Source: Candidatus Saccharimonadota bacterium
Lineage (GTDB): Bacteria; Patescibacteriota; Patescibacteriia; 2-12-FULL-60-25
Reading direction: 5' to 3'
NCBI GenBank assembly: GCA_022843095.1
Contig: JALHOH010000001.1
Coordinates: 600,001-632,000, forward strand
DNA: 32,000 nucleotides
The notes below the pieces were generated by a model. That model worked only from the letters and a program-made list of their open reading frames with translations, had not been told where the DNA came from and made no database searches. Shown here piece by piece: positions 20,771-31,593 of this stretch (position 1 is its first letter; the number at the start of each line of letters is the position of its first letter). The translations under genes were made by a program, and so were the position numbers.

Positions 20771-20845
20771 GGCCTCATCGTTTAATGGCTAGGACAACCC
20801 CCTCTCACGGGGTAAATAGGGGTTCGATTCCCCTTGGGGCTGCCA
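20771..20845 (+). tRNA. tRNA-Glu (anticodon CUC), CCA encoded
   Basis: Hand-folded cloverleaf: GGCCTCA-TC-GTTT-AATGGCTA-GGAC-A-ACCCC-CTCTCAC-GGGGT-AAAT-AGGGG-TTCGATT-CCCCT-TGGGGCT-G-CCA. The anticodon loop is CU-CUC-AC. There is a G1:U72 wobble. Confidence 0.9.
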
Positions 20846-22516
20846 TGTTGAAGACCGCGCTGTTTGCCCCTCGGCATCGGCGCGGTCTTCTTCTATTTTC
20901 AGCGGAAAACGCGCACTCGTGTGTGGGTTCGATCCCCGCATCGTCGACGGTGCCAGCCCTGTTGAAGTCCTGCCCCTCGAAACACGCACAATGGCCTTCT
21001 GTTTCGAAAGAATCTCCGTCGAAAACGTGGGGTTCGATCCTTCGCCCCCGAGCAAGAGAAGTGGTTCCACCAATGAGACCGTGACTCCGCGTCGCCGGAT
21101 CTCGATCCGAGCGCAGGTCTCACCAACAAGCCGCCGTCGCTCCTCGGGGGGTGCGTGCCGGAACGCGAGCGAGATCTGGGCGGCGAGCTGCACGAACCCC
21201 CGCACCTTCTCCGCAGTGCGTTGCTCGTGCGCCTCGGGCGCTCGGAGCGTTCGCTCCTGGTCGAGTCGCTCGGCGACGAGCGCTTGTTTGCGCGTGAGGT
21301 AGTCGGATTCGTCCAGTACCCCACGAACGCAGAGCGTTGTGAGGCGTTCGAGCTCGAGCGAGATCTCCTCGATCCGGCGGCGGGCTGCCGCGAGGGTAGC
21401 CCGCTTCGCCTCGGCCTCGGCGCGCTCAGTGCCGTCGAGTTGTGCGAGCGCCCATTCCTCGAAACCGGGCGGTAGTTCGACGTCCCGAAAGGCAGCCTCG
21501 ATCGCGTGGTCGATCCAGCGTTCTTCGAGGTGCGGGCGCTCGCAAACGCCCAGCTCGTTCTTCCGGCGCGAACAGCGATAGTACACGTACTCACTCCCGA
21601 ACCGGTTCACGTGGCGCTCGGAGGTTGTTCCTCGCCCACATTCACTGCAGCGAAGCAGGCCACGGTATGTGAAGCGGTAGCGCTTCGGGCGGGGAGCGTG
21701 GCGAGTCTTCAGAATCGCCTGCACGCGTGCGAATTCGGCTGCAGTCACGACTGGCACATGCGCGCCTTCGTACACCTCGTCGCCGTGGCGGAGCACTCCC
21801 GAATAGAACGGGTTGTGCAGCATGTGGTGGATGCTCACGAGCGGGAGCGGTCCTGCGGGATGGCGACGCGTGCCCCGTGTGCGCAGCCCGAGCGTTTTGT
21901 CAGCGTAGATGGTCGCATCATGGAGACTCATCGTCCCAGAGAGGAAACGACGAAACAGCGCTCGGACGAGCGGAAACCGTTCGGGATCGGGGATCGTTGC
22001 CCCCGCACCACGGCCTCGTGCAGCGGGAGACTCCTTGAGGTAGCCGAGCGGAACAATGCCCGTCCAGCGTCCCGACTGGAGTACCGCGCGGTTTCCTCGC
22101 TTCACGTTGTCGGAAAGATCATCGACGTACTTCTTGGACATCCCGAAGTCGAGGTTCAGCATGAACTTGTCGTCTCCAGTGTTCCGGAACGTGCGACCCG
22201 GGGTTAGAATCTGCCCGATCTTGCGTCGGTCGAGCGCGTCGATGACCTGGCCGCCGTCGAGCGCATTCCGCGCCAGGCGGTCAGGCTTCCAGCACAGAAT
22301 CCCTGCGACGGGCCGCCGCTCGAGCGCAGCCATCATGGCGCCGAACACGGGGCGTCCCGGGGTACGGGCGCTCTGCGCTTCCTCGAAGGTGCGCGAGATC
22401 GTGATCCCGTTTCGGGCAGCGAGTTCGCGGAGTTCGGCGATCTGCGCCGAGATCGACGCGATCTGGCGGTCATCTTCCTCGGTGGACTTGCGTACGTAGA
22501 GAAACCATGTGGACAT
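20789..22516 (-). CDS. large serine recombinase (integrase)
   Basis: The N-terminal resolvase domain is MSTWFLYVRKSTEEDDRQIASISAQ (catalytic Ser in RKST), followed by a recombinase domain (GRWTGIVPLGY). The zinc ribbon is CSECGRGTTSERHVNRFGSEYVYYRCSRRKNELGVC, followed by a coiled coil. The recognisable protein ends near aa 490 (about nt 21045). The remaining ~85 codons run through the T-arm repeats and 57 nt of tRNA-Glu before the first stop. Confidence 0.9.
   Translation of the reverse strand: MSTWFLYVRKSTEEDDRQIASISAQIAELRELAARNGITISRTFEEAQSARTPGRPVFGAMMAALERRPVAGILCWKPDRLARNALDGGQVIDALDRRKIGQILTPGRTFRNTGDDKFMLNLDFGMSKKYVDDLSDNVKRGNRAVLQSGRWTGIVPLGYLKESPAARGRGAGATIPDPERFPLVRALFRRFLSGTMSLHDATIYADKTLGLRTRGTRRHPAGPLPLVSIHHMLHNPFYSGVLRHGDEVYEGAHVPVVTAAEFARVQAILKTRHAPRPKRYRFTYRGLLRCSECGRGTTSERHVNRFGSEYVYYRCSRRKNELGVCERPHLEERWIDHAIEAAFRDVELPPGFEEWALAQLDGTERAEAEAKRATLAAARRRIEEISLELERLTTLCVRGVLDESDYLTRKQALVAERLDQERTLRAPEAHEQRTAEKVRGFVQLAAQISLAFRHAPPEERRRLVGETCARIEIRRRGVTVSLVEPLLLLGGEGSNPTFSTEILSKQKAIVRVSRGRTSTGLAPSTMRGSNPHTSARFPLKIEEDRADAEGQTARSSTWQPQGESNPYLPRERGLS
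20851..20900 (+). terminator. rho-independent terminator after tRNA-Glu
   Basis: A 10-bp stem pairs AAGACCGCGC (20851-60) with GCGCGGTCTT (20880-89), has a 19-nt loop and is followed by CTTCTATTTTC. Confidence 0.6.
20905..20968 (+). repeat. degenerate tRNA 3'-half-like repeat (unit 2)
   Basis: GAAAACG...GTGGGTTCGATCCCCGC...GGTGCCAGCCCTGTTGAAGTCC parallels tRNA-Glu plus its flank (GTAAATAGGGGTTCGATTCCCC...GCTGCCATGTTGAAGACC). No matching 5' half or cloverleaf is present. Confidence 0.5.
21021..21072 (+). repeat. degenerate tRNA 3'-half-like repeat (unit 3)
   Basis: GAAAACGTGGGGTTCGATCC repeats the variable-loop/T-arm pattern of units 1 and 2 at about 105-nt spacing. The segment ends in GGTTCCACCA and sits at the GC-content transition. 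Confidence 0.45.
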
Positions 22517-24731: not shown

Positions 24732-25269
24732 TCCCCGTGTGCTCGCGCTCGTCGCGTCCTGCGAAGGCATCGCGTTCGCTGCGCTCGATGCGTGGAACGT
24801 CCGCGCCCTCGGCACCTTCGCCGCAGACGAACCCATCACGCTCGCGCTCGTGCGGCTCATCTTGCGCACGCGCCCCTCGCACATCGTCCTCGCGGGACCA
24901 CGCTCGTCACGCACACGTATTCAACCGCTCCTTCGCACGCTTGCGGAGCGTTCCGGGCTCGGTCTGCTCGTTCTCGATCGCGCCGCAGCGACGGCGCTCA
25001 CAGCGCGCGCACCGTCCATGGACGAGCTCCGTCTCGCGTACCCCGAGCTCGTCGTGATGGACACGCCACACGCAGAGCCCGCCCTCATTCTCGCGGTCGC
25101 GTCACTCACGCACGCGCCGCTTCACCCTCGTCGATATGCACCAACCGTTGCTCGTTCCCATGCCTCCGCCGTGGCTCTCCCGCGCACAGGACGCCCTCAC
25201 GCTGTACCGAGTCCTCGAAGATCGGCAGCTTGCCGTCCTCGTGGAGCGTCCCCTCGAAGAAGTCCGTGA
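24706..25269 (+). CDS. hypothetical protein, weakly similar in pattern to the 23108..23770 product
   Basis: Only the part of ORF 24166..25269 from ATG 24706 looks protein-like: MHHRPPRRDPRVLALVASCEGIAFAALD...SHIVLAGP...LGLLVLD...HAEPALILAVASLTHA. The last ~45 codons overlap the next gene and may not be genuine. Confidence 0.45.
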   Translation: MHHRPPRRDPRVLALVASCEGIAFAALDAWNVRALGTFAADEPITLALVRLILRTRPSHIVLAGPRSSRTRIQPLLRTLAERSGLGLLVLDRAAATALTARAPSMDELRLAYPELVVMDTPHAEPALILAVASLTHAPLHPRRYAPTVARSHASAVALPRTGRPHAVPSPRRSAACRPRGASPRRSP

Positions 25270-25984
25270 TGTCTTGGATCGTCTCGTGCGGGCGAAGCTG
25301 CTTGTGGCGTTGCGTCCGCTCTCGCTCGGCGTCTCGTCCACCACGGCGTATGGCTTCACCGTCAGGGGCGCGAAGCTCTACGCACGCACGACCGGTGCCC
25401 CCATGCCGCGTGCCGTGCATGCGAAGCGCTCTGCGCTCACGCTCTTGCACGAGCTCGCCGTGGCAGAGGTCGGGCTCGTGTTCCGTGCCCTGCACGCCCG
25501 CGCGATTCTCGCGCTCGAACGGTTCGATACCTCGCGCGAGCGTATCGGATTCGCGCAGGCGATCGCGGGACCGAAGCCCGAGCTCGTGCCGCTCGTCGCG
25601 GATGCGTTCCTGTCCGTCCGCGTGCAGGGGACACGTCACGCGCTCTTGGTCGAAGTGGATCGTGGAACGGTGAGCGCAGCTCGCGTCGCGAAGAAAGCAG
25701 AGGGATACCTCGCGTGGCTCCGCGCGGAAGGCCCCGAGACGCGCTTCGGCGTGCGAGCGCTTCGCGTGCTCTATGTCGTGCCGAACCGAGCACGCCTCGA
25801 ACGCCTGCGCGACGCGATCCTCGACGTCGCTGGGCGTGCAGGTACGGGGCTCTTCTGGTTCGCGGAAGCGAGCAACGTCCGCATCGAGACACCAGAGCGC
25901 ACCCTCGAGCCCGTGTGGTCTACTGCGCGCAAGCACGATCCGGGACACGCCGGTCTCTTCGCGGCGCCTGCGGCTCCGTCTTGA
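25136..25984 (+). CDS. replication-relaxation family-like protein (N-terminal wHTH)
   Basis: An N-terminal wHTH-like segment (LTLYRVLEDRQLAVLVERPLEEVRDVLDRLVRAKLLV) is followed by LTLLHELAVAEVGLVF...PLVADAFLSVRVQGTRHALLVEVDRGTVSAARVAKKAEGY. This matches my recollection of the Replic_Relax signature (H...v..v ... PDa.. ... lEvDrGT...K...Y). Confidence 0.6.
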   Translation: MHQPLLVPMPPPWLSRAQDALTLYRVLEDRQLAVLVERPLEEVRDVLDRLVRAKLLVALRPLSLGVSSTTAYGFTVRGAKLYARTTGAPMPRAVHAKRSALTLLHELAVAEVGLVFRALHARAILALERFDTSRERIGFAQAIAGPKPELVPLVADAFLSVRVQGTRHALLVEVDRGTVSAARVAKKAEGYLAWLRAEGPETRFGVRALRVLYVVPNRARLERLRDAILDVAGRAGTGLFWFAEASNVRIETPERTLEPVWSTARKHDPGHAGLFAAPAAPS

Positions 25985-26124: not shown

Positions 26125-26625
26125 TCAGATGCCTGCTCCCTCCCAGTCGATCACGACGATGCGACGTGCGCTCTCCGTGTACCCGATGACCCGAGCCGTC
26201 ACATCGAAGCGCTCGCAGAGGTCCTCGGCCTTCAGGATCTCCGCAACGGGAACGATGAGGATGAAGTCGATGTGGCGCTCGAACGCCGCATCCGCGTACG
26301 GCTTCCACTGCCGTTCGGCCTCGGCTGCGGTGACGGAGTCGCTCGTCTCAACCTCGAACACGAACGAGGGCTCGATCGAGAGGCTGCCGGTCTGCAACTC
26401 GGTGAACTCGCCGACAATCAGGTCCGGGTACAGCGTGTCCGCGAAGACAAAGCGCTTGGAGGAACCCGCGTTCGCTCCAACGTCGTATCCGCCGCCGATC
26501 AGGTTGTCTGTCGCCTCCGCGATGACGCGGTCGTGCAGGTCGCTCGCCGCTGCCGTGCGTGTCCGTCCCGTCATGGTGTTCGGCATCGCGCTATCATGGG
26601 CGGTTGTCAAACGGACGATCAGCAC
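26125..26625 (-). CDS. Uma2/DUF820-like PD-(D/E)xK restriction-endonuclease-fold protein
   Basis: YPDLIVGEF...PSFVFEVETSDSVTAAEAERQWKPYADAAFERHIDFILIVP follows the Uma2-type pattern (PD..v ... vvEV.S.s....D...K...Ya..g..ey..v) as I recall it. The start is either GTG 26625 (9 nt after the upstream stop) or ATG 26586. Confidence 0.5.
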   Translation of the reverse strand: MLIVRLTTAHDSAMPNTMTGRTRTAAASDLHDRVIAEATDNLIGGGYDVGANAGSSKRFVFADTLYPDLIVGEFTELQTGSLSIEPSFVFEVETSDSVTAAEAERQWKPYADAAFERHIDFILIVPVAEILKAEDLCERFDVTARVIGYTESARRIVVIDWEGAGI

Positions 26626-26634
26626 GAGCGTGAG

Positions 26635-28068
26635 CTACTGGCTCGCGATGCGATTCCAATCGAAGGAATCACATGGTGGGGTGAAGATCGAAAACGACCC
26701 GTAGAAGTTGTCGAGGAGCTGGTCGGCTTGCCGAAGCGATGGCGCCAGTGTGGCAACGTCCTTCACGCCGAGCGCTTGCGCGAGGCTCGTCGCGGCACGT
26801 CGGCTCGTCGCTCGTTGGATGAACTCTGGCGGTCCGCTCAAGTACAACACCGTCCACGGTCGCCATGCGTCGTTCCAGTTGGAGTCACGACTGACACGGC
26901 TCCGCAGATAGAGAAAGTAGTCCGCGTCCATGAACTGCTGCCACGGGACGCGTTCAGCGAGCGGCCCGGAGGAGTACCGCGCCTTCAGGATGTCGGCACG
27001 TATGGACGTTCGGTTCTGCTTGAGTCGCTCGCGTCGCACGCGATCGAGCAGCTCCGTGAACTCCGAAAGTCTGTCGAAAGTCACGGTCCGATCCGGTCTA
27101 GAACCACCTGTCACGGTGAGCGGCGTTCGAAGAAGTTCATCAACGGTGCTCCACTTCTTTTCGCGAAGCTGAGCCTCGATGAAGACAACGAATGTTTCAT
27201 GCGCCACAAACCGGAACAAGTCGAAGCTGGTCTTGAAGAACGATCCTGAAAACCCACGTGGAACATCGAACCGACGAAGCATCTGCTCGAAGAACCCGAG
27301 CATCTCCTCCCGGACGGCTTCGTCGCCGAAGATCGCGACTTGCCCGGCGACGCGCGCAAACTGTTCGACAATGGGCGCAGATGCATCGATGGCCTGTACG
27401 AGCAGTTCGTCATCGTTGCCGCGCTCGGGGCGGAGCGCGTCGATGTCTGAGAGCGCACGCAGAACGTATCGACGTGTCACCGAGACGCGATCAGCACGTC
27501 CCTCGGCGAGTGCGTCGATGAGCTCGTCCGCGGGGTGACGCGGAGGTGGAGGAGCGGGCTTCGCTTGCTCGGCCACGGCAAGCGCAGCTCGTACCGCGAC
27601 TTCGAGTGTCTTCTGCAGCGCGCGCCGGGGGTCGGCTTTCTGTTCGTCGGTCTCCTGCACGGCGAACGTCATGGTGCGGCGTTGGCGAATATCAAACGGA
27701 AGGTCTCCCGGCGGACCGTATGCGGTGTTCATCACGAGCACGACGCGCTCCCACCCGAGTACTTTGAGCGCATAGCCGAGCTCGACGAGCACGTTTGGAT
27801 TTGGGGATGGTCGCCCCGCGGTGTCTGTCGTGACGAGTGTCACATCCGCGACGAACACCGCAGCGCGATCGATCTTCTCGAAGATCGTGGCCACGATGTC
27901 GGGTGAACCCGGAATGCCGGCGGTGTCTTTGTCGAGCCGGGGATCGACGTCGACCGTGATGTCGTTGCGGATCGCCTGGGTTGCATCCTCGAGGGCGCGC
28001 TGGATGAGGTTGCGCGTTGTGTTCCCAGGGCGGTCCGACTGCCACGCATAGAAGACGGTGGTGCTCAT
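26635..28068 (-). CDS. nucleoside 2-deoxyribosyltransferase/TIR-like N-terminal domain fused to an uncharacterised ~300-aa helical C-terminal domain
   Basis: ATG 28068 (MSTTVFYAWQSD...) lies within ORF 26635..28107. The N-terminal domain carries VFYAWQSD, GIPGSPDIVATIFEKIDRAAVFVADVT and SPNPNVLVELGYALKVLGWERVVLVMN. This matches the NDT-like pattern (I..D...I..aD.vva... then E.GYA...gk.vi) of the TIR/NDT/SLOG flavodoxin-like group. The C-terminal domain has no motif I recognise. Confidence 0.6.
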   Translation of the reverse strand: MSTTVFYAWQSDRPGNTTRNLIQRALEDATQAIRNDITVDVDPRLDKDTAGIPGSPDIVATIFEKIDRAAVFVADVTLVTTDTAGRPSPNPNVLVELGYALKVLGWERVVLVMNTAYGPPGDLPFDIRQRRTMTFAVQETDEQKADPRRALQKTLEVAVRAALAVAEQAKPAPPPPRHPADELIDALAEGRADRVSVTRRYVLRALSDIDALRPERGNDDELLVQAIDASAPIVEQFARVAGQVAIFGDEAVREEMLGFFEQMLRRFDVPRGFSGSFFKTSFDLFRFVAHETFVVFIEAQLREKKWSTVDELLRTPLTVTGGSRPDRTVTFDRLSEFTELLDRVRRERLKQNRTSIRADILKARYSSGPLAERVPWQQFMDADYFLYLRSRVSRDSNWNDAWRPWTVLYLSGPPEFIQRATSRRAATSLAQALGVKDVATLAPSLRQADQLLDNFYGSFSIFTPPCDSFDWNRIASQ

Positions 28069-28130
28069 GCTGCCCTTCACAGAAGCAATCGCGTCGAGGC
28101 CGCGCAAGTCCTCGTCCGTGTTGACCGAAT

Positions 28131-29399
28131 ATGCTCCTTCCCTTCGCGCGCATCGATCACCGGCTCGGACGAGGCCGGATCGTTGCGATTCGCGCGACGG
28201 ACGCAGCCCGGCACATCCACATCATCGGGCAGACGGGTGCCGGTAAGTCGGTGCTGATCGAAAGGCTCTTCGTCGCAGAGATGCGCGCGGGACATGGCGT
28301 CGGGCTCCTCGATCCGCACGGAGACCTGGTCGAACGACTGCTCGACTTCGTTCCGCGCGAACGCACGAACGATGTCGTGCTCGTGGACGGCAGCGAGCGA
28401 GAGGCGCCCGTCGGACTGAACCCGCTCGACATGCACGACGCACCAGCACCCGAGCTCGTTGTCTCCGGCGTCCTCTCGGTGTTCAAGAAGGTGTACGGCG
28501 ACTCCTGGGGACCGCGGCTCGAACACCTCCTGCGGAACGCGCTCTTCGCGCTCGCGGACGTGCGTGATGCAACGCTGCTCGGCGTGCTGCGCATGTTGGT
28601 CGAGGAGCGCTTTCGCGCGCGTGTGCTGCGCTCGGTGCAGAACCCCATCGTGCGATTCTTCTGGGAGAGGGAGTACCCGTCGTATCCGCCTGCGTTTCGC
28701 GCAGAGATGGCGAGCCCCGTGCAGAACAAGATCGCCGCTGCACTCACGCACCCGTTGCTCCGCGGAATCGTGGGACAGGTCCGCACGACGGTCTCCGCGC
28801 GAGAGATCATGGACGAAGGACGCGTGCTGCTCGCGAGCCTCGCGAGGGGACGGATGGGCGAGGACGCGTCGATGTTCGTGGGCGCGCTCCTACTCGGACA
28901 GTTTCAGCTCGCGGCGTATGCGCGTGCGGATGAGGCCCCGCGCGAGCGCCGTCCCTTCACGCTCTACGTCGACGAGTTCCCGTCTTTCGCGACGGAGAGC
29001 TTCGGGGATCTCTTGGTGGAGGCGCGGAAGTTTGGCCTCGCACTCGTGCTCGCGCACCAGCACATGGCGCAACTCTCTCCCGCGCTCGGCCGGGCGATAC
29101 TCGGGAACGCAGGGACAACCATTGTGTTTCGCGTGGGGCCCGAGGACGCTGCGCAGCTCGCGCCGTTGTATGCGCCGGAGCTTCGCGCAGAGGACCTCTC
29201 GAAGCTCGCGCGCCACCAGATCGCGCTTCGCCTCGCTGTGAACGGTACGACCTCCGCGCCATTCACAGCGGAGACGTTGCCGCCCTTCGAGGCCCGCGAA
29301 CGCACAAAACAGAGCGCGCTCATCCAGCGCATCTCACGCGAGCGATACGGCACGCATCGCGCGCGCCGCGACGCCCAACTCCGCGCGCAGTTGGAGTGA
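28131..29399 (+). CDS. soluble FtsK/HerA-superfamily P-loop ATPase (TraD/VirD4 coupling-protein-like or DUF87/HerA-like)
   Basis: Walker A is HIIGQTGAGKS, followed by LLDPHGD. Walker B is FTLYVDEF. The region EARKFGLALVLAHQHMAQLSPALGRAILGNAGTTIVFRVGPEDA is also present. No TM segments are seen. It diverges from the NDT/TIR-like gene across a 62-bp spacer. Confidence 0.8.
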   Translation: MLLPFARIDHRLGRGRIVAIRATDAARHIHIIGQTGAGKSVLIERLFVAEMRAGHGVGLLDPHGDLVERLLDFVPRERTNDVVLVDGSEREAPVGLNPLDMHDAPAPELVVSGVLSVFKKVYGDSWGPRLEHLLRNALFALADVRDATLLGVLRMLVEERFRARVLRSVQNPIVRFFWEREYPSYPPAFRAEMASPVQNKIAAALTHPLLRGIVGQVRTTVSAREIMDEGRVLLASLARGRMGEDASMFVGALLLGQFQLAAYARADEAPRERRPFTLYVDEFPSFATESFGDLLVEARKFGLALVLAHQHMAQLSPALGRAILGNAGTTIVFRVGPEDAAQLAPLYAPELRAEDLSKLARHQIALRLAVNGTTSAPFTAETLPPFEARERTKQSALIQRISRERYGTHRARRDAQLRAQLE

Positions 29400-30213: not shown

Positions 30214-31593
30214 ATGCAAGAGCAAGCCGAACGCATCCGAGCGTGGATCGCGAGCTACCTCACCGCTTGGCGCGCGGCGTGGGACGCCGCGAGCGAATCA
30301 ACCCGCGCCCACGTCCACACGTTTCGAGCAGAGGACCTGCGCGCTCCGGTGCAGTTTCGAGTCACGCTCTGCACGGACCCCAAGTATCCCTTCTGCACCA
30401 CGGCTCTCACGCTCGCGCGCGACCCCAACACCCCCGACGGCGAGGTGACGATCGAGATCGAAGCCCCCGACACGCTCGCGCAGCGAAACGAGTATCGCGC
30501 CAACATGCTCGTCCAATACTTCGAGAGCATGCGCCAGAACTATGCTCCTGGTCGTGAGTTCGAGCCGCCGCTTCTGAATGCCGGCGTGAGATATCGCGCC
30601 GCCAATGGTTCGTTTTGGGTTCTCCCCGACGACGTGAGCCGCCTCCCAATCGAGGAACTGATCGCACATCACTTCCGCGAACAGACGCCGCACGTCATCC
30701 AACCACAACCCACGTTCAAGCCCCGCCATCTCTTCGATCTCCGCCAAACACGCGAAGAAGTGACCTTCGCGACGTGGCTCGAGTCGCCTACGAACGTACG
30801 CGAGTTGCTGTGGGAACTCGGCATCCGCGCGCCCTGCTGGTACGCGATCAGCTTGCCGCGCTCGATGGTTCTGCCGGGCGCAAGCGGCGACTTCGACTTC
30901 GTCGCAGGCGAGCTCGAGTTCCTCATGACGAACGATGAGTGGCGCGCTCGCCGAACTCGTATCGCTGCGACGTACCCCCTCGCAGCCCACCCCTCACGGA
31001 TCGATCAGGATACCGTCGACGAAGCGGCTCGTGACGGCTGCGTCGGGTGGCCGCCCGATCCCTCGGCCACCCTCGTTGGCGTCGAGGTCAAGGTCTCGAA
31101 GTATGACGGTACAAGCGATCATCTCGGAGCGACCCACGAGAACGAGGGCGAACGCATCGTCGGTCAGCTCAAGCGACTCCGGCAGATCGGCTCCGTGCGT
31201 GCGGCCCTTCTGCACCTGATCGTGACGAACCCGCGTGGAGGGTGGGGAACAGCCGATCAAGATCTCGCTCGCGCATACAGGAAGCTCGAGTCCCTGATGC
31301 CGCTCATCAAGCACGACCACTTCGGCTACTTCTCAGCCGTACTCGCGTCCGTCGCGCACCAAGACGAGCGATTCGCGGGCTCCCAGACAAGGCTCCTCGC
31401 CGACCCCAGCCCCCCAACCCTTGAACGGACCACGGACTCCGACGAGCCACGCAAGCGCCTTGCTGAAGCCCTCGGGAAACTCCCTCGTCCACGTGACGTG
31501 ATCCAACCCATCCGCGTCTGCGCCGACTGCAAGACGCTCTTTCGCGCCTTCGCCCCCAGCGCCGACCAGTGCGGCTGCACGCGTCGCGGATAG
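30214..31593 (+). CDS. hypothetical protein with a PD-(D/E)xK nuclease-like core and a Cys-rich C-terminus
   Basis: The 459-aa protein carries GASGDFDFVAGELEF (D), then about 75 aa later ATLVGVEVKVSKYD (ExK), then GQLKRLRQIG, which is the D...ExK...Q order of the restriction-endonuclease fold. The N-terminal ~230 aa are unrecognised. The C-terminus is CADCKTLF...QCGC. Confidence 0.6.
   Translation: MQEQAERIRAWIASYLTAWRAAWDAASESTRAHVHTFRAEDLRAPVQFRVTLCTDPKYPFCTTALTLARDPNTPDGEVTIEIEAPDTLAQRNEYRANMLVQYFESMRQNYAPGREFEPPLLNAGVRYRAANGSFWVLPDDVSRLPIEELIAHHFREQTPHVIQPQPTFKPRHLFDLRQTREEVTFATWLESPTNVRELLWELGIRAPCWYAISLPRSMVLPGASGDFDFVAGELEFLMTNDEWRARRTRIAATYPLAAHPSRIDQDTVDEAARDGCVGWPPDPSATLVGVEVKVSKYDGTSDHLGATHENEGERIVGQLKRLRQIGSVRAALLHLIVTNPRGGWGTADQDLARAYRKLESLMPLIKHDHFGYFSAVLASVAHQDERFAGSQTRLLADPSPPTLERTTDSDEPRKRLAEALGKLPRPRDVIQPIRVCADCKTLFRAFAPSADQCGCTRRG

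Follow-up and report, generated by a model that had tools for sequence, protein, structure and literature searches.

A predicted TIR-like head on a bSEFIR-type C-terminal domain: a candidate single-gene abortive-infection protein carried as element cargo in a Candidatus Saccharimonadota genome

The window analyzed here is the whole 32,000-nucleotide (nt) stretch between positions 600,001 and 632,000 of contig JALHOH010000001.1 (assembly GCA_022843095.1) of a Candidatus Saccharimonadota bacterium. Its most informative feature is gene A (26635..28068, minus strand), whose product of 477 amino acids (aa) combines a TIR-like N-terminal head with a C-terminal domain of the bSEFIR type. Downstream on the same strand lies gene B (26125..26574), which encodes a 149-aa PD-(D/E)xK-like protein of an unnamed family and is assigned to the backbone of the surrounding mobile element, not to a partnership with gene A. 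An earlier account of this DNA, made from its letters alone (hereafter the sequence-only reading), had joined the two genes into a candidate defence cassette; the 477-aa open reading frame (ORF) and the motifs that it quoted are indeed present at the coordinates it gave. Both genes are real: A has about 80 full-length homologues (28-84% identity) and the B family comprises 816 cluster representatives at E<=1e-3.

The start codon of gene A is an ATG with GAAGGG in front of it. The frame stays open further upstream, to a TTG at 28107, but the homologues begin at the ATG, which is therefore taken as the start. The family is phylogenetically patchy, being found in cyanobacteria, Planctomycetes, Acidobacteria, rhizobia (Bradyrhizobium), Bacteroidota and bacteria of the candidate phyla radiation. 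Across 81 sequences, F6, W9, D75, PNPN89-92, E96, L97, G98, N114 and LPFD123-126 are invariant, and the AlphaFold2 model built on the alignment of these sequences reaches a mean predicted local distance difference test (pLDDT) value of 93.5 and a predicted template-modelling score of 0.81. NCBIfam contains no match for A or B, sequence-profile searches of the PDB sequences with A, with its head alone or with B return nothing significant, and a tblastn search of the phage collection with gene A gives no match.

The N-terminal domain (residues 1-150; 27619..28068, minus strand) is predicted to adopt a flavodoxin-like, TIR-like fold of the CAP12/PycTIR type. The sole Pfam match of gene A in the window is PF10137, the CAP12/Pycsar TIR domain (E 4.5e-4, 20.7 bits); the same model is matched at E<=0.01 by 36 of 38 relatives, the best of them at E 4e-7, and precomputed PF10137 annotation is present on several homologues. 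PADLOC model PDLC00731 ('Effector', TIR) is matched by 76 of the 81 family members, and neither A nor the 38 relatives show a match to Pfam SEFIR (PF08357) or TIR_2. When the AlphaFold2 model is used as the Foldseek query, ranks 1-8 are occupied by TIR-STING structures (7un8, 9lmq, 9lmr; E 1.2e-3 to 9e-3, probability 1.0); the list for the full-length protein is filled by head matches, and the comparison with known structures covers the head. In the alignment obtained with a head-only profile, PNPNVLVELGYA of gene A faces ARDNVHLEFGISL of PycTIR ('NVHLEFG', 8jsj), which places Glu96 (codon 27781..27783, minus strand) on the conserved Glu of the latter in a weak match (E 0.31). Glu96 is the predicted catalytic residue. 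The head thus belongs to the TIR/NDT superfamily, NDT standing for nucleoside 2-deoxyribosyltransferase, and lies nearer to its TIR side. With the PF10137 and TIR-STING matches and the invariance of Glu96, the sequence-only reading, which had recognized a TIR/NDT-like head and its Glu, proves right at the superfamily level.

CAP12 (TIR-STING) and PycTIR are the effectors of CBASS and Pycsar, respectively. They give the best Pfam, PADLOC and Foldseek matches, carry a TIR-like head of the same type and share with gene A the conserved Glu within an NV..E.G motif; by analogy, gene A would be an effector that depletes nicotinamide adenine dinucleotide (NAD+). These proteins, however, rely on a cyclic-nucleotide-binding domain (STING or cyclic-nucleoside-monophosphate-binding) to activate the TIR domain and depend on a separate cyclase gene, whereas in gene A the head is N-terminal, its partner domain is the bSEFIR tail, and no conserved cyclase or other partner accompanies it.

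It is also conceivable, if unlikely, that the head is an NDT-like N-glycosidase which acts on nucleotides or nucleosides (for example by cleaving deoxynucleoside monophosphates or nucleoside triphosphates) and is not an NADase; gene A would then remain a depletion effector made by a single gene, with another substrate. In sequence, ELGYA is reminiscent of the NDT nucleophile motif, and PF05014 is weakly matched by a related head in Ruegeria (E 0.0068); in structure, the Foldseek alignment of the head with the Chroococcidiopsis NDT has a root-mean-square deviation (rmsd) of 3.1-3.6 Å over 115-124 columns at probability 1.0, and Rcl is also among the matches. NDT and Rcl (PF05014) share with gene A the flavodoxin-like fold and a Glu located where the equivalent strand-helix junction ends. 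Gene A itself, however, has no PF05014 match at E<=0.1, and its relation to these enzymes is visible at the fold level only (Foldseek E 0.04-0.1); TIR-STING is ranked first by Foldseek, the PADLOC TIR effector models recognize nearly the whole family, PycTIR is the only PDB sequence match with a plausible alignment, and the N-terminal 'VFYSWQSD' resembles the TIR start 'vFISYS..D'. A housekeeping NDT was considered and rejected. NDT enzymes are small, serve housekeeping or salvage functions and lack a 330-aa tail.

The second half of the argument is carried by the C-terminal all-helical domain of gene A (residues 151-477; 26638..27618, minus strand), which the sequence-only reading had left as helical sequence devoid of any motif that could be placed. 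It is in fact homologous to the C-terminal domain of bSEFIR proteins and represents a predicted sensor or regulatory module. A tblastn search against plasmids retrieves a 481-aa Deinococcus protein (WP_041231793) whose tail matches that of gene A (BLASTP: 27% identity over 246 aa, E 2e-13) and whose N-terminus contains Pfam SEFIR and TIR_2; the PADLOC bSEFIR model recognizes this protein at 3e-94. When the A family is compared by hhalign with nine bSEFIR proteins, taken from plasmids and one Clostridium phage, residues 150-477 of A align with residues 140-481 of bSEFIR over 322 columns, with a probability of 99.9% and an E of 1.3e-34. The two tails have in common the motifs FDxxxF..HE(L/T)F, RL..NRxSxHAD(I/L)L, ADxxLF and WxP, and phrog_11745 matches residues 215-455 of A (E 5e-27). 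A single-sequence search with the tail alone returns only seven proteins, which is a word-index effect. The PADLOC bSEFIR model (PDLC03957) is matched through the tail by 12 of the 81 family members at E<=0.01; the approximately 80 full-length homologues are at present annotated as "hypothetical", and this model mostly overlooks them.

Regarding the heads, no relation is detectable between that of gene A and the SEFIR head (hhalign probability 2.6%). Gene A is consequently described as a head-swapped bSEFIR-like protein, because the tails are homologous while the N-terminal heads are not detectably related; at the level of profile comparison, this low value indicates that the heads have been exchanged and have not merely diverged. 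As an anti-phage system of a single gene, bSEFIR has been validated (Millman et al., preprint, 2022), the family being defined by an N-terminal SEFIR match stronger than its TIR match (Millman et al., methods), and the NAD+ depletion it causes has been attributed to its N-terminal domain (Osterman et al., preprint). Gene A and bSEFIR share a length of about 480 aa, the arrangement of an N-terminal TIR-superfamily head followed by a helical tail of about 330 aa, the homology of that tail, the single-gene condition without a conserved partner, and their carriage on plasmids, phages and islands. They differ in that the head of gene A is neither SEFIR nor TIR_2, and the protein therefore lacks the dominant N-terminal SEFIR match that defines the family. 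On plasmid p4 of Leptospira interrogans (locus L095, 1756-2040), a canonical bSEFIR gene is followed after 13 nt by a gene annotated as nucleoside 2-deoxyribosyltransferase, which places the genes for a SEFIR-headed and an NDT-like protein side by side.

The head is itself modular. It recurs (E 1e-63 to 1e-75) on at least 18 other tails that are distinct by BLAST, versions on viral contigs and conjugative plasmids being among them; head relatives are common on conjugative plasmids (56 of 71 records). Such a distribution fits a putative exchangeable effector module. On a Ruegeria plasmid (locus L092, 2252-5266), this TIR-like head is joined to a different tail in a protein of 421 aa, the gene of which overlaps by 4 nt the end of an AbiEi/AbiEii toxin-antitoxin pair, in the manner of a third operon gene.

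As for the genomic surroundings of the family, all-against-all clustering of the neighbours at 54 loci reveals no conserved partner of gene A. Besides A itself and ORFs inside it, the largest cluster is present at 7 of the 54 loci, all from related cyanobacteria. The closest relative (84% identity) has an MmeI-like restriction-modification gene downstream, and no 149-aa gene is called on its contig. A 67%-identical relative is found in a Myxococcales metagenome-assembled genome (JAEUKI010000032.1, locus L107), on an element with DUF87 ATPase, Replic_Relax, HNH and NYN genes; the arrangement of that element is different and it contains no B gene. Genes of the A type seem to recur as cargo of the class of elements that encode a DUF87 ATPase and Replic_Relax. 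Among the neighbours of family members, some belong to type I and II restriction-modification, DRT UG29, mad2 and PADLOC candidate systems.

In the window, gene A lies between two backbone genes of the element. On one side, and divergent from A, is a TrwB/VirD4/HerA-like ATPase gene (28131..29399, plus strand; PF10412 E 1.2e-12, together with DUF87), with 92-97% nucleotide identity to related elements; on the other, beyond B and convergent with it, is a Replic_Relax gene (25136..25984, plus strand; PF13814 E 1.9e-15), which is kept in the related elements. Homology by blastn, at 92-97% identity outside the slot, breaks off at 28133, the 5' end of the TrwB-like gene, and at 26574, the B start codon. 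These breakpoints against L001 and L086-L090, together with the junction alignments, delimit a swapped-in segment (26575..28132) consisting of gene A and short flanks. In its place the related elements contain about 620 bp with B', a 149-aa paralogue of B (33-35% identity), so that B and B' stand in tandem in five of them (L001 9450-9899 and 10001-10450; L086-L090). A weaker similarity of about 40 nt upstream of B, which includes a TTGACA box, survives the swap. The elements that share the backbone differ in this cargo slot (B' or A), in an additional gene for a 253-aa AAA_21 ATPase located in the same slot of L001 (10503-11264), and in the integrase module, which is a tyrosine integrase with HTH_17 in L001 (15339-16475) and a serine recombinase in the window. 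Gene A is thus assigned as cargo of a variable slot and B as backbone, because related elements keep B while the A segment is swapped.

Given this location, gene A might serve the element itself, as an addiction toxin or a toxin of inter-element competition that stabilizes the island or excludes rivals. In line with such a role, gene A is flanked by transfer and replication genes on an integrative element, the 67%-identical relative occurs on another element with DUF87 ATPase and Replic_Relax genes, and head relatives are frequent on conjugative plasmids. Most genomic members of the family, however, lie outside this element type, no conserved antitoxin-like partner is found, and defence genes are routinely carried by mobile elements, so that the location does not discriminate; a toxin in the service of the element is accordingly judged improbable.

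The relationship between A and B was evaluated at the A-related loci (80 from genomes, the one from Myxococcales, 80 from metagenomes and 26 viral; 60 with full-length A) by means of a narrow (11 sequences) and a broad (150 representatives) hidden Markov model of the B family. With both models, a B-family gene is found in none of 186 fetched A-related loci: neither in the flanks of any of the 60 other full-length A loci nor in those of the head-only loci. Conversely, five contigs from independent sequencing runs, in which this element backbone recurs at 92-97% DNA identity, possess B and lack A; a sixth related contig ends just upstream of B. A two-gene defence cassette, in which A would be the nucleotide-depleting effector and B its nuclease partner or sensor, is consequently very unlikely. 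In its favour, the two genes share a strand and are separated by 60 nt in which no terminator is predicted; distant B homologues occur near AAA_21+RloB, HEPN and Abi_alpha genes; and, as the position upstream of B is occupied by B' or by A, B could in principle be the constant partner of exchangeable genes. In addition to the occurrence data, this idea is opposed by the lack of any conserved neighbour of A, by the part of its own upstream sequence, with the TTGACA box, that B retains across the swap, and by the single-gene action of the bSEFIR relatives. Neighbourhood conservation, which the sequence-only reading had put forward as a check on its own proposal, is absent for the pair, and the conserved operon or two-gene cassette is rejected. 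Its defence or abortive-infection candidate is upheld for gene A alone, through the homology of the tail to validated bSEFIR, and not for the A+B module; its remark that the pairing is no named system is true only insofar as there is no such system, gene A alone being close to the named bSEFIR. Finally, a TIR-like head that makes a signalling nucleotide for a separate effector elsewhere, as in Thoeris, is the least probable of the explanations considered: signal generation is common among the TIR domains of bacteria, and screens of this kind include PF10137 in their TIR families, but no conserved effector gene lies nearby, and the characterized PF10137 proteins (Cap12, PycTIR) and bSEFIR are themselves NAD+-depleting effectors.

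Taken together, the preferred reading, which is held to be rather probable, is that gene A follows the bSEFIR plan and acts on its own, as a single gene, in abortive infection, with a PF10137-type head in place of the SEFIR head; it is carried as cargo in the slot of an element whose B gene would be independent of it. In the mechanism proposed, the C-terminal domain of about 330 aa would keep the head inactive until an infection cue is detected, and the activated head, probably after oligomerization, would use Glu96 to cleave NAD+ or, less likely, the N-glycosidic bond of another nucleotide. The resulting nucleotide loss would starve the phage together with the infected cell, in the manner of abortive infection. 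Gene A entered the slot between the TrwB-like ATPase and Replic_Relax genes as a gene-sized cassette that displaced a B paralogue, the element probably being integrated at tRNA-Glu, while B, as a backbone gene of the element, would work independently of it. Of these points, the homologies of the domains, the exchange of the heads, the absence of a conserved partner and the replacement of the cassette are demonstrated by the sequences, while NADase chemistry, sensing by the tail and protection against phage are inferred.

Several points weigh against this interpretation. The PF10137 score of gene A in the window (20.7 bits) is below the gathering score of 24.7, the placement of Glu96 on the PycTIR Glu depends on the weak match given above, and the NDT matches in Foldseek (8rh3, rmsd 3.1 Å) are about as good in rmsd as those to TIR-STING, which makes the substrate uncertain. 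The window protein escapes the PADLOC bSEFIR model, with no match at E<=0.1. In this genome A and B may be co-transcribed, in view of their common strand, the 60-nt spacing and the lack of a predicted terminator, promoter and terminator scans being uninformative in GC-rich DNA. The defence genes counted among the neighbours of the family were counted without a control and are weak supporting context.

With gene A, the bSEFIR family is widened beyond the SEFIR head that defines it: the tail and not the head is its conserved element, and this tail becomes the prime candidate for the phage sensor of bSEFIR. The two proteins also constitute a natural head-swap pair, in which the control of two unrelated TIR-type enzymes by a single putative sensor domain can be studied, and the locus illustrates cleanly how cargo the size of a gene is replaced in a fixed slot while the rest of the mobile element stays 92-97% identical. 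More tentatively, the bSEFIR tail may be a portable infection-sensing module that drives unrelated TIR-superfamily heads, of the SEFIR/TIR_2 or the PF10137 type; with the PF10137-type head in turn placed on other tails, the two would belong to a combinatorial network of single-gene immune proteins that deplete NAD+ or other nucleotides and are mostly overlooked by defence-finder models. Bolder still would be the addition that effector genes (B' or A) take turns in the slot upstream of B and that all of them work with B as their common partner.

Regarding gene B itself, the ORF as listed extends over 26125-26625 (minus strand). All homologues measure 129-149 aa and the DNA homology to related elements begins exactly at the ATG at 26574; on these two grounds, this ATG is the most likely start (149 aa), and the spacing of 9-48 nt downstream of A reported by the sequence-only reading is corrected to 60 nt. 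The AlphaFold2 model (pLDDT 88.4) contains an alpha-beta-beta-beta-alpha-beta core, and its Foldseek matches are weak and all belong to the PD-(D/E)xK superfamily (CdiA-CT nuclease, BstEII, YaeQ, MmcB-like, endonuclease I, Holliday junction resolvase). N35, D51 and E74 are invariant in the family, and H14, D15, P50, E76, T77 and W90 are nearly so; Asp51 opens strand 2, and Glu74 closes strand 3. The motif reads PD...E-x-E (E-V-E-T), with the near-invariant Glu76 at the canonical Lys position of D...(D/E)xK. The family, whose signature is HD...N...PD...ExET...W, resides on mobile elements and corresponds to no Pfam or NCBIfam model. The protein of the window has no Pfam match at E<=0.1, Uma2 (PF05685) included, and the matches among 150 family representatives are distributed over AHJR-like (8), HSDR_N_2 (5), Uma2 (2, weak) and Hjc (1). 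The core fold, the D51/E74 pair and the weak matches to several families resemble Uma2, AHJR-like, Hjc and MmcB-like nucleases, from which gene B differs by the Glu in place of Lys and by its own conserved H14-D15, N35 and W90. Of the earlier label, Uma2-like PD-(D/E)xK, the superfamily is probable from the core and the Foldseek matches, while Uma2 is rejected; judged from the model, gene B is a PD-(D/E)xK-like protein of uncertain activity.

Behind each of the distant B homologues (129-130 aa) comes a gene of about 190 aa that overlaps it (L082 6001-6982, L101 6001-6959, L105 4311-5272). The products of these genes are 33-76% identical to each other and have an N-terminal hydrophobic segment that appears membrane-spanning by eye; the two genes may constitute a two-gene module. 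RadC and ArdC genes also occur near the distant homologues, in addition to the AAA_21+RloB, HEPN and Abi_alpha genes mentioned above. Among the long B-family proteins, no fusion to the membrane partner of about 190 aa is found, and three of them (P0184, P0226, P0243) give no match against the PDB sequences.

The mobile-element setting with an ATPase, already perceived in the sequence-only reading, is confirmed by the serine recombinase, the Replic_Relax and TrwB/VirD4-like genes, the rise in guanine-cytosine (GC) content and the tRNA-Glu gene. Positions 1-20.7 kb are housekeeping chromosome with 52-60% GC, encoding EPSP synthase, Val-, Tyr- and Arg-tRNA synthetases, MgsA, a penicillin-binding protein and a Mur ligase. 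At approximately 21 kb the GC fraction jumps from 0.55-0.60 to 0.61-0.68, precisely at tRNA-Glu(CTC) (20771..20845, plus strand; ARAGORN), which marks the island boundary and is the likely integration site. The left end of the element is formed by a large serine recombinase gene (20789..22516, minus strand; Resolvase, Recombinase and Zn_ribbon_recom domains), the 3' end of which overlaps the tRNA gene on the opposite strand. The arrangement suggests a genomic island inserted at a tRNA gene, with its right end beyond the window. Integration at tRNA genes is unusual for a large serine recombinase.

Two further observations concern the window as a whole. A 459-aa ORF of the element (30214-31593, plus strand) gives nothing significant in Pfam, NCBIfam, PADLOC or PHROGs (only phrog_12292, E 0.034); by eye, its stretch 'DFDFV...GVEVKVSK' could be a PD-(D/E)xK motif, and this ORF may be the other nuclease-like gene of the sequence-only reading. 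In positions 1-20700 all large ORFs lie on the plus strand, with a GC skew of about +0.10 to +0.23 that exceeds +0.1 in all but one 1-kb window; inside the island this skew is lost or reversed, which is consistent with a foreign origin.

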